Source: a virus
Lineage: Duplodnaviria > Heunggongvirae > Uroviricota > Caudoviricetes
DNA: 25,967 bases
Virus record (IMG/VR): IMGVR_UViG_2519899560_000026
Location: 1 to 25,967 of that record
Strand: one strand, 5' to 3'
Made by a program: the position numbers. This document shows, one piece after another, positions 9,001-12,000 of the stretch (position 1 is the first letter of the stretch; the number at the start of each line of letters is the position of its first letter).

Positions 9001-12000
9001 TCGGGCTTTCCAGGCTTTGAAGGCCGCTGACTTGGAGTTACCACCAGCACGTTTGGGATATTCCTGCCAGGCCTGTTCAAATTCCGGTGAATATTCCTGT
9101 CGGGCAGAACGTGCTGGTGCAGACGCGTCAGCGGATGCGCCAATAGTGTTTTTACTCTCTGTAGTATTCTCTGAAGTAATCTCTGTTGTATTCTCTGTAA
9201 GATCGAAATTGGTTTTCCCTTCACCGCGGCGAGGGGTTTCCCGTGTCCGCGGTGAAGGCTTTCCCTCCTCCGCGAAATTGGGTTTTACAGTTTCCCGAAA
9301 ACGGGTTTCCCCATTTCGGGAAAACTGATTGTTTTCATTGATAATTTCATTAAGGCGCTCACAATCTATACGGTAGAACATTTTGTGCTCAAGACGCTTG
9401 TTGGTTTCAACTAAAATGCCTCTGGACACAAGATGCTTACGCGCTACAGCCTGTTGTTCAAATGTAAGTCCTGTTTCGTGTTGTATCTCTTCACGCGTTT
9501 TATGTACGCCTTCCGCTGCATGTGCTTTATCCTGCCAGTAAAAAATCTGACCAAAGAAAATAACAGCGTGCGGACTTCCCATGTATTTAACGAGCCCAGG
9601 GTAATAAGCAACCGGATGTCCAAAATCGAGCAGAAGATCAGACGGACGCATAGCCACCTCCCAGGCGTTTAAACATTTTTCCGGACTGAAACGCCACCAG
9701 CGGATAACTCAGGGTGTGAGTACGTCCCTGAACCTGGCAGACAACCTTCTGGCTTTCTGTATTGACCAGGCAAACCCGCAGAACATGGCCGTTGCTGGTG
9801 GTGAACCACTGCCCCACACGGGGGCAACGGTTGTATCGGTGATACAGGGAATTAACGACACGGCGAATCATGGGCGTACCTCCCGTTGATTACGACGGAA
9901 CGCGGAGTGACCCTGGACGGTTTCAACCTCATGGAGTGCGTCAATACAGCTCTCGTAGTACCGCATGGTGCGCAGACTTAACCCAAGCTGTAGCATCATC
10001 AGACCATCACGGGTGATGTAATAACCACGCACTAAATCGCCATAGGCGCGATAAGTGCCGGGAATAAAGTTACGGGTAAGAAATTCGCGTGAGCAGTTGA
10101 GATATTCGATTCGGTCGACGATGTTCTTATGCATGCGCTTAAAGTGACAGGCGACATACAGGGAAAATATAACGGCTCTGCCGTTGACGACCTCAATTTT
10201 GAGGTATGGGGAAACTGGGACTGTAGCCATGATGGCAGCCTCCGTTGACTGTGGAAAACTTCCACCACCGGAGGTGCAAATCTCGCTGGTGGCGGACTGA
10301 ACAGGGTTTGCACTACCGGCGTCAACGGAGACCGGCGAGCCTTTCGGCTCCCCTGCCCAGCCCACCATAATTCTGGCGTGCGTGAGCGCGGACGATAAAA
10401 AAGACGCTGGCGCGTCGTATATCGCCGTTGACAATTCCGGGGTGCAAATCCCGGCACCCGCTTTATAAGGTGCCAGAACAGTGTAACGTCCCGGAATTGC
10501 AGAATCAATATGCTGGTGGCGCTTCACACTCAACAAAATCACGACGAAACAACCACAGCGGGCTGAAGCATTCATGCGGATAACCATCACGCAGGTAAAT
10601 AACCCGCTGTGTTTCAGGCTCCCAGCGTATAATGTGGACGCGACGTCCCCTTCCATCACGGAACCAGCGATTGAGTACTTGCATGTGTTACCTGTGAGCA
10701 TAATTACCCCTGCCAGCCCAGCGCCTGGAACAACCCCATTTTCGGGTGATACCAGCGTGCACCTCGTGGCTCTGCTTCACTCATCATGCGATGAAAAGCA
10801 GCCATGAAAGGTTCTACTGCAACAATCGCTCGACGAGACAACAATCCATCCGGCGTCATAAATTCATGGGTATCGGTAGGGATCTGATATGCGTTCACCA
10901 GATTGCGGCATTTCGCATCTGACATACCCGTTTTCGCCACCAGCTGACGGTAGCCTGCATAACCATCGCGTATGGTGCCTCTTTTGATTTTCTCGACGGT
11001 TTCAGTAACGTGGGTGACTTTCTCTTCCACCTGCTCAAGACGTCTTTGTTGGCGAACAGCTTCAAGCGCCATTGCAGCAACCATTTCGATCTGGCTCATT
11101 GGTTTGCGGATTTGTTCTTCCAGTTCGCGCCAGCGGTCTACCAGGCGGGCGGTGAATTCAGGGCAAAGCTGTGCGACAACAATGATGCTGTCGCGCTTGC
11201 CTCGTTCACCTTCGAAAAGATAATGCTTACTTTTTTGAGTTAAACCTAACCCATTGATATTTTCAGAAATCCCCATTGGGGGAAGCTGAATAATCCCTCG
11301 TTCAGCAAGGCGCTCAATGGATTGTTTCACTTTGTCATGGCGGCTGCCCACCAGCTCTGCGATCTCAACGCTGGTCATGGATGCTTTATCGGTAAAAATT
11401 GCGGTATTCATCTGATTGCTCCTTGAGGATGACATTTCAGAACTCACGCCAAAACGTATGCATCGTGAGTTACTGCTCGTGACAGTCAGTCTTTAATCTC
11501 TGGTAATACCGTTTGATTTTCGTAACGAATCAGGAATTCCATCTTCGGGATAAGGGTATAGATCAGGTCTTAACCCATGCGGAGTAACCTTCCATTCAAC
11601 TAATTCACACACCCGTAAAACAAAACGAGAAGGAACGGAGTTTTTAGAAAACCACAGGTTCACCGCTTGTGGCGTAACACCGATGTATCTTGCTATGGCG
11701 TTTTGAGGAATCAATTTACGCAACATGTCGTAATCATTCAGTTTTATCACAGCACAGCTCCAATATTAACTTTACAAATCAAGAATACATCAAGAATAAA
11801 TTAACATGCAAGTTTCAAAAGGATCGAATACACTAAAATCAAGTTAATATTTATGTGTATAAAGCCTCGACAGGAACTCACCATGAAGAATGTAAAAAGC
11901 ACAGAAAATCGGATAGCAATGATGCTGAAAACAAAAGGCTGGAGTCAGGCTGAACTAGCCCGTAAGCTGGGTGTAAGCGCACAATCAGTACAATACTGGA

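Follow-up and report, generated by a model that had tools for sequence, protein, structure and literature searches.

Where does replication begin in an Stx2a-converting prophage whose replication module is not of the lambda O/P type, and which of the repeats inside its initiator gene would serve that purpose? We addressed this question for the 25,967-nucleotide stretch of caudovirus DNA held in IMG/VR record IMGVR_UViG_2519899560_000026 (positions 1 to 25,967; the whole stretch is referred to here as the window), in which a 299-amino-acid initiator is encoded on the minus strand at 8758-9657. From the anatomy and conservation of the repeats and from analogy with characterized origins, we conclude that the segment 9151-9336, in the part of that gene that encodes an interdomain linker, is probably the prophage origin, in which family-specific repeats (iterons) would be bound, tandem 12-mers would be opened, and the C-terminal domain of the initiator would recruit the helicase. 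Origins placed where an initiator gene encodes a linker are known already from lambda O, P22 gene 18, and the RepA_N plasmids; the present instance is set apart by the initiator family, its iterons, and a conserved 12-mer module. Stx phage replication is reportedly needed for effective toxin production (PMC7466680), and the segment provides a probable origin for an Stx2a phage of this other replication type.

Read in gene sense, the segment consists of two adjoining arrays, one of 23-bp and one of 12-bp period, which are the two top-scoring tandem repeats of the 26-kb window. The main array comprises five 23-bp units in exact register (9313-9199, minus strand) with the core GGGAAAnCC...TTCGCGG, namely, iteron 1 (TGGGGAAACCCGTTTTCGGGAAA, 9291-9313), iteron 2 (CTGTAAAACCCAATTTCGCGGAG, 9268-9290, the most degenerate), iteron 3 (GAGGGAAAGCCTTCACCGCGGAC, 9245-9267), iteron 4 (ACGGGAAACCCCTCGCCGCGGTG, 9222-9244), and iteron 5 (AAGGGAAAACCAATTTCGATCTT, 9199-9221). 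A partial, inverted iteron-like unit (GAAAACAATCAGTTTTCCCGAAA, 9314-9336, minus strand) precedes them in the same 23-bp register. Autocorrelation of the iteron region reaches its maximum at a lag of 23 (0.55-0.58), and Tandem Repeats Finder independently called the array (period 23). Because 23 is not a multiple of 3, this array is not a peptide repeat. Abutting iteron 5 without a gap are four tandem 12-mers (ACAGAGAATACA, ACAGAGATTACT, TCAGAGAATACT, and ACAGAGAGTAAA; 9151-9198, minus strand) with the motif ACAGAGAWTACW, which encode residues 154-169 (TENTTEITSENTTESK) and were called by Tandem Repeats Finder at 9156-9199 with a period of 12 and 3.7 copies. The 12-mer block has 33% G+C, holds the least stable 40- to 60-bp stretch of the initiator gene, and is unstructured as a single strand, whichever strand is considered (z about 0), in contrast to the iteron block, which has a strong tendency to form hairpins (z about -5).

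An earlier reading of this DNA, made from the sequence alone and referred to here as the sequence-only reading, had described four TCTCTG cores in exact 12-bp phase at 9156-9197. These are indeed the single such match in the window, and none of 100 dinucleotide-preserving shuffles (0/100) yielded another. The 12-bp and 10-bp perfect inverted repeats and the stretch with 30% G+C at 9328-9360 that it had also listed are present, and all of these elements lie within the initiator coding sequence. Its elements are confirmed and its proposal of an origin at this place is supported, and its assignment of roles is not: the 23-bp array had been overlooked, its units having been noticed only as inverted repeats. 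The 12-bp repeat (CCTTCACCGCGG at 9218-9229 and CCGCGGTGAAGG at 9247-9258) takes its arms from those halves of iterons 3, 4, and 5 that contain CCGCGG, and the 10-bp repeat (TTTCCCGAAA at 9291-9300 and TTTCGGGAAA at 9314-9323) pairs part of iteron 1 with part of the inverted unit before it; both perfect inverted repeats are by-products of the half-sites of the 23-bp iterons.

The repeats span codons 108-169 of the 299, between two folded domains (residues 15-113 and 187-260). In an AlphaFold2 model built from a 57-sequence alignment, a winged-helix N-terminal domain (about residues 15-113; 9319-9615, minus strand) with the secondary structure order H-H-E-H-H-E-E-H and a predicted local distance difference test (pLDDT) score of about 70-80 is presumed to bind the iterons, and a helical C-terminal domain (residues 187-260; 8878-9099, minus strand; pLDDT 80-89) is presumed to contact the helicase loader. 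Between them lies a linker (residues 111-186; 9100-9327, minus strand) that is predicted to be disordered (pLDDT <50) and is encoded by the DNA holding the iterons and 12-mers, in agreement with the earlier suggestion that an embedded origin explains the low complexity of this part of the protein. Foldseek comparison with the PDB returned winged-helix matches only, all weak and none at an E of ≤0.001; the RepA_N initiator-DNA complexes 5kbj, 4pt7, and 4pql were among the top matches, and these were also weak (E = 0.03-0.09, probability 0.93-0.98). A sequence search of the PDB found no relative. The whole protein matches PHROG 270 ("replication initiation protein"; E = 9e-65), and no Pfam family, including Phage_rep_O, matched it. 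The C-terminal domain has PHROG matches to DnaD-like and primosomal families and is swapped as a module of its own, separately from the N-terminal domain and the iterons. A protein search found 1580 homologues of the initiator.

Among these homologues, we obtained a sample unaffected by motif choice by selecting full-length proteins of 46-77% identity and only then retrieving their DNA; all eight (8/8) carry 23-bp-period repeats followed by a TACAGAGAWTAC block. A codon-aware alignment of six of these protein-sampled homologues gave pairwise identities at codon positions 1/2/3 of 0.80/0.89/0.46 in the N-terminal domain, a pattern typical of protein-level selection, and 0.72/0.73/0.44 in the C-terminal domain, compared with 0.67/0.71/0.66 in the iterons and 0.87/0.83/0.86 in the 12-mers. 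Only across the iterons and 12-mers does the conservation of third positions reach that of the first two, which points to a DNA-level constraint confined to this segment. In two homologues, the 12-mer DNA is kept by means of compensating single-base insertions and deletions (indels) that alter the peptide to TVDYTETTQEIT. In a pooled 12-mer profile, which is biased by the motif-based discovery of most loci, variation is seen at position 8, the middle base of a codon for N, I, T, or S, and at position 12, and the third codon positions 3, 6, and 9 are nearly invariant.

Codon use gives the same picture. Fully degenerate back-translation of TENTTEIT(T/S)E, scanned against viral contigs, recovered identical codons in 122/122 of the matches listed. 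As a genome control, a still more degenerate pattern was scanned against one genome per species: 25 matches combined the strict codons ACA GAG AWT ACW with an upstream array of 21- to 24-bp periodicity, and in 85, ordinary TE[NIK]T peptide repeats, the codons were mixed and the upstream sequence lacked periodicity. The mixed cells of the resulting 2x2 table (25, 2, 3, 85) held 2 and 3 matches, and codons and iteron context were strongly associated (Fisher p = 8e-20).

The 12-mer block is shared far beyond the initiator family of the window. In a megablast search with the initiator gene, short matches of 93-97.5% identity restricted to this block were returned from mEp460, HannyBb, PhiR42_1, and Pantoea phage AH07. 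The 12-mers of mEp460 and AH07 are about 97% identical to those of the window over 40 nt, their initiators are 19-24% identical to the window protein, and each phage has its own array of about five ~23-bp repeats directly upstream of the shared block. A comparison of about 300 loci, in which figures from IMG/VR pattern scans count the matches listed and are lower bounds, yielded a common layout of 4-7 family-specific repeats of 22-23 bp followed by 2-5 copies of the 12-mer. At least 171 IMG/VR loci with enough flanking sequence fell into at least 31 upstream iteron classes among the matches listed, and the best autocorrelation lag was 23 bp in 23 of these classes and 21-24 bp in 30. Among the listed IMG/VR loci, 121/123 place the 12-mer in a long open reading frame (ORF) in one frame, T-E-(N/I)-T; a test of frame diversity is therefore uninformative, and the codon-position and indel evidence was used instead. 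The class is defined here by an initiator ORF of about 260-400 amino acids that contains 4-7 family-specific repeats of 21- to 24-bp period and, directly after them, at least two copies of ACAGAGAWTACW translated as T-E-(N/I)-T. The window locus shows all of these features and belongs to upstream class U2. One IMG/VR match on a giant-virus contig (L015) was an unrelated protein repeat and was left out.

The hosts of this layout include Proteobacteria, Firmicutes, and Chloroflexi, and the layout also occurs in cyanobacterial phages. Among phages, it is present in Burkholderia phage DC1 (65% G+C; its initiator is clearly homologous to that of the window), Pseudomonas phage CF63a (61% G+C; lag-23 autocorrelation of 0.70), a Synechococcus phage (58% G+C), Staphylococcus phage 37, Bacillus phage PM1, a Geobacillus phage, and Acinetobacter phages. 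Among genomes, it was found in Enterobacterales, Vibrionaceae, Aeromonadaceae, Oceanospirillum, Marinomonas, and Acinetobacter, as well as in "Candidatus Amarolinea" (Chloroflexi), Lysinibacillus, Clostridium, Lachnospiraceae, Tissierellaceae, and Natroniella. The genes downstream vary among the loci and encode DnaC-like, DnaB-like, P-like, G39P-like, or primase-helicase proteins. The record OR842880.1, named "Xanthomonas phage SU1" (L194), has 33% G+C and an initiator region almost identical to that of Staphylococcus phage 37; its taxonomy line is Rockefellervirus, and the Xanthomonas host label looks wrong.

The arrangement also occurs on plasmids. An 8.4-kb mobilizable Bacillus velezensis plasmid, pBamNAU-B3a (NC_022531.1, ~7254-7425; L200, 1409-1580), carries an origin-like cassette of about 180 bp, which shares 76% identity with the middle of the PM1 initiator gene and contains four iterons, three copies of ACAGAGATTACT, and about 50 nt more, with no surrounding initiator ORF. 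Its 33-bp 12-mer block recurs at 97% identity in four other small Bacillus plasmids (8.4-8.9 kb), and the cassette could allow plasmid replication by PM1-like phages or interference with them. On the Nostoc punctiforme plasmid pNPUN02 (L201, 1360-1545), a gene for a 501-amino-acid hypothetical protein upstream of a DnaB-like helicase gene contains GTCAACAAAC-type repeats followed by ACAGAGATTACTTCAAAGATTACTTCAGAGATTACA, and the motif is therefore also present on a large cyanobacterial plasmid.

How the two arrays relate to the two protein domains was evident from their combinations across loci. Where two loci have N-terminal domains of at least 70% identity, they share the iteron class in 97-100% of pairs, regardless of the C-terminal domain; where they have only the C-terminal domain in common, the figure is just 21%. 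We counted 24 combinations of N- and C-terminal clusters, and in the cases read, the modules switch at the 12-mer block. For example, a natural chimera (IMGVR_UViG_2534681940_000023; L120) joins window-type GGGAAA iterons to an mEp460-type C terminus, with the switch inside the 12-mer block, and C-terminal-only matches to phiP27 stop just before that block. The joint between modules lies after the iterons and not before them, as in lambda. On the basis of this co-variation, the 23-bp units are likely specificity repeats that are swapped together with the N-terminal domain.

The closest known counterparts are the origins of lambda and P22. The O genes of lambda, 933W, and P27 and gene 18 of P22 likewise hold an origin in mid-gene, between the regions for a DNA-binding N-terminal domain and a loader-binding C-terminal domain, and the O proteins of lambda and Stx phages act with iterons and an AT-rich tract (PMC7466680). 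The lambda and P22 origins consist of 4-6 direct repeats with a spacing of ~20-24 bp and partial dyad symmetry, followed by an A+T-rich region with a purine-rich strand (PMC7466680). Where the lambda type has at least four direct repeats at ~20-24 bp, the window has five at 23 bp, and where, in the direction of the gene, its iterons give way directly to an A+T-rich region, the window has the 12-mer block; the setting is that of a lambdoid early-right operon. In lambda, four annotated iterons are followed by ACACAAAAGACACTATTACAAAAGAAAAAAGAAAAGATTATT and then by TCGTCAGAGAATTCTGGCGA; in P22, the iterons are followed by ACAAAAGACAATAT twice. In loci of the L010 type, the 12-mers are followed by ATCATTCGTCGCAGAATTCTGGCGA, which is the sequence found after the AT-rich region of lambda, and the 12-mers therefore occupy the place of that region. 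The C-terminal domain of L010 looks lambda-O-like in a translation read by eye, with no scored comparison. With the roles of the two arrays thus corrected, the order of elements in the gene sequence matches lambda exactly: N-terminal domain, iterons, A+T-rich repeats, and C-terminal domain. The earlier proposal of a lambda-like origin in the linker-coding part of the gene is supported by the confinement of the constraint to that part, by the predicted disorder of the segment it encodes, and by the recurrence of the layout.

The window locus also differs from lambda. Lambda O belongs to Phage_rep_O (E = 6e-36), and the window initiator lacks that domain; the window iterons, five at a strict 23-bp period, are unrelated in sequence to those of lambda; and lambda relies on P and host DnaB, whereas DnaC-like and DnaB-like proteins are encoded here by the phage. 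The ACAGAGA 12-mer was not found in the lambda and P22 origins, which have a different, ACAAAAGA-type A+T-rich tract in place of the tandem ACAGAGAWTACW 12-mers.

Two further groups of replicons offer partial parallels. In pSK41, the Rep boxes are central in the rep gene and encode a dispensable linker (PMC5703833), and in the RepA_N plasmids pSK41 and pTZ2162, a winged-helix N-terminal domain binds repeats placed centrally in its own gene (PMC5703833); the window initiator has a predicted winged-helix domain, and its repeats likewise lie centrally and encode a linker. Their C-terminal domain is host or partner specific, and the N-terminal domain and origin are swapped as a module, as in pPR9 (PMC5703833). 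In contrast, the window initiator has no RepA_N Pfam match, its structural similarity to that family is weak (E = 0.03-0.09), and the RepA_N plasmids belong to Firmicutes. We considered pPR9, a staphylococcal plasmid with a phage-like Rep N-terminal domain and an autonomously replicating rep region, as a possible experimental example and rejected it: pPR9 carries repeats of a different kind together with an AAT-rich tract, and the ACAGAGAWTACW block was not found in its rep gene. Iteron plasmid origins (RK2 oriV and F oriS) and oriC have tandem 13-mers in the unwinding element; origins of this group place iterons of ~22-bp period beside three or four tandem A+T-rich 12- to 13-mers, much as five iterons abut four 12-mers in the window. 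Those origins differ in being intergenic and in having DnaA boxes, whereas the window repeats are translated, lack a DnaA box, and are unrelated in sequence. In RK2, the unwinding element contains four 13-mers whose sequence and position matter, and TrfA binds one of their strands (PMC4081077).

We propose that the N-terminal winged-helix domain would bind the five 23-bp iterons (9313-9199) and build an oligomeric complex, which would destabilize the four adjoining 12-mers (9198-9151), where the duplex is less stable than elsewhere in the gene. The C-terminal domain would then bring the phage's own DnaC-like loader and DnaB-like helicase, encoded immediately downstream, to the 12-mer block as the putative unwinding and helicase-entry element. 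In this scheme, ACAGAGAWTACW would be a module shared under many initiator families and would also act as the joint for recombination between N- and C-terminal parts. The steps are modeled on lambda and Stx-phage O (PMC7466680), pSK41 (PMC5703833), and RK2 (PMC4081077); the anatomy, constraint, co-variation, position relative to lambda, and distribution are facts of sequence.

Several points weigh against this scheme. None of the members of the 12-mer class found here is known to have an experimentally mapped origin, and most loci were collected through the DNA motif itself, the eight protein-sampled homologues and the degenerate-pattern scans being free of that bias. Linkage contributes to the co-variation between iterons and N-terminal domain, since the DNA encoding that domain lies next to the iterons. 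With 33% G+C, the 12-mer block has only a moderate A+T content; it lies in the least stable 2% of the window without being extreme, and is not the minimum of the gene at the 100-bp scale. The DnaA box TTWTNCACA is absent from 2404-10250, which gives no indication for or against a part played by host DnaA. Finally, the strict conservation of the 12-mers exceeds what a passive unwinding element would need, and they may therefore do something more specific.

That last point leads to the alternative with the most in its favor, which we consider possible while judging it somewhat unlikely: the region would still be the origin, and the 12-mers would be a sequence-specific site, double or single stranded, for a factor common to all of these systems. 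Such a factor may be a conserved host replication protein or a single-strand-binding activity shared by the initiators. The motif A C A G A G A w T A C w is near-invariant, third positions included, across phyla and in genomes of 58-65% G+C, and it outlasts single-base indels that alter the peptide. Lambda and P22 have another sequence at the same position, so that A+T-richness alone does not force this motif, and there are precedents in the binding of TrfA to one strand of the RK2 13-mers (PMC4081077) and of DnaD to TnnT motifs (PMC10201434). DnaA-trio and TnnT readings of the 12-mer were weighed by eye, and these motifs are low in information. Yet no candidate factor was identified, the downstream partners and both initiator domains differ between loci, the region offers neither a DnaA box nor a promoter-like signal, and recombination among phages could inflate the apparent conservation. 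Recombination might even be the whole reason for conservation, if the block served only as a joint between the C-terminal modules and the N-terminal domains with their iterons, as the 24 N/C combinations, the switch at the block in the cases read (L120), and the phiP27 C-terminal matches that end just before it would lead one to expect. We consider this unlikely. What a joint needs is identity between partners, not one and the same sequence in phyla between which DNA exchange is rare, and the block keeps a fixed position and polarity beside the iterons and is retained in a plasmid cassette with no domains to swap; moreover, a role in recombination is compatible with one in initiation and does not replace it.

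Two further explanations were considered. Under the assignment that follows from the sequence-only reading, the 12-mers would be iterons bound by this particular initiator, the inverted repeats would be accessory, and 9328-9360 would be the unwinding region. Exact phasing, high significance, and location inside the initiator gene would suit such iterons, but near-identical 12-mers stand under unrelated N-terminal domains across phyla, including those of mEp460 and AH07, whose 19-24% identical initiators have different 23-bp arrays, and at least 31 iteron classes share them. The tract at 9328-9360, for its part, encodes the last helix of the N-terminal domain (...RLNEIINENNQ), a conserved helix whose coding sequence is G+C-rich in the Burkholderia homologues, and it lies on the wrong side relative to lambda, so that the polarity would be reversed. 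It is probably not an origin element, and we regard this assignment of roles as very unlikely. We give even less credence to the idea that the repeats have no function as DNA and are a TENT peptide linker expanded by slippage, with the origin elsewhere. The 12-bp period is a multiple of 3, the frame is the same in 121/123 of the loci listed, and TE[NIK]T repeats are common in unrelated proteins; those repeats, however, use mixed codons, whereas the 12-mers next to iterons always read ACA GAG AWT ACW. The 23-bp period is out of frame, third positions are constrained in this segment only, A+T-rich codons persist even where genomic G+C is 58-65%, the motif survives as DNA where the peptide changes, and pBamNAU-B3a has an origin-only cassette without an ORF.

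No description of the 12-mer module was found in the searchable literature, a search that did not cover older subscription literature such as reviews of phage replication modules, so that absence is not proven. In full text, the 12-mer sequences occurred only as primers, and the peptide strings of the 12-mer, among the papers listed, only in unrelated ones, with no occurrence of TENTTEITTE or TEITTENTTE. It is possible, though less likely than not, that tandem ACAGAGAWTACW is an undescribed sequence-specific element of the theta-type origins of phages, prophages, and some plasmids, read probably as a single strand by a common component, and that it marks the site of helicase loading. If so, ACAGAGAWTACW would be a phage counterpart of the oriC 13-mers or the DnaA-trios, and the origins of many uncharacterized temperate phages would become predictable from sequence. 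A working rule for candidate origins in temperate phages, prophages, and phage-like plasmids would be to look inside the initiator gene for repeats of 22- to 23-bp period followed by ACAGAGAWTACW. A joint at the 12-mer block would also explain the swappable N- and C-terminal build of these initiators, and the near-invariance of the 12-mer across phyla, synonymous sites, and genomic G+C content raises the question of what reads it.

A different tandem 12-mer, ACGGAGAAAACT, which encodes TEKT, was observed in ORFs of Bacteroidales, Prevotellaceae, Paludibacteraceae, Fibrobacter, and Desulfobacteraceae metagenome-assembled genomes (MAGs), with the variant ACCGAGAAAACT in a Kiritimatiellaeota MAG (genome contigs L215, L218, L220, L222, L224, L238, L240, L272, L274, L291, L309, and L321). 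It lies near the C terminus of ORFs of ~470-530 amino acids where the contig permits, no upstream iterons were seen, and its codons are nearly identical across these groups.

The source of the window is an Stx2a-converting prophage of Escherichia coli O145:H28. The initiator gene is 100% identical to those in LC567818, LC567820, and LC567824 and in O145 chromosomes, and the identical GenBank Stx2a-phage records label its product "phage replication protein O." The gene order is cI, cro, initiator, DnaC-like, and DnaB-like, which places the initiator gene downstream of cro in the early operon. Directly downstream of it is a gene for a DnaC/IstB-like helicase loader (7848-8885, minus strand; Pfam IstB_IS21, PHROG 50), and then comes one for a DnaB-like replicative helicase (6451-7890, minus strand; Pfam DnaB_C, E = 3e-74, and DnaB; PHROG 19). 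The DnaC-like ORF as listed has a TTG start and overlaps the initiator gene by 128 nt; because the family match begins only at residue 53, the true start is probably further downstream. An Rfam scan of the whole window found no RNA family within 8700-9700, a promoter and terminator scan of 8700-9900 gave no more sites than shuffled sequence, and GC skew and composition profiles had no informative switch at the scale of the window.

The window also carries the cI/cro region, Q, stx2A, stx2B, and three tRNA genes. Between cro and the initiator gene, an ORF at 9868-10701 with Ash and Rha-like matches contains two Rfam matches above the gathering score, to the C4 antisense RNA (10285-10372, minus strand; 80 bits) and to isrK (10397-10473, minus strand; 62 bits), so that this Stx phage has a region resembling the P1/P7-type antirepressor control module. 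The toxin pair (1511-2751, minus strand) consists of stx2A (1792-2751, RIP domain) and stx2B (1511-1780, SLT_beta), with an STnc100 small RNA match and the three tRNA genes directly upstream of stx2A (features at 1222-1436 and 2845-3093, minus strand). Q (4756-5151) and genes for a DUF968/HNH protein and a DNA methylase are present as well, and these features together form the usual late-region layout of an Stx2 phage.

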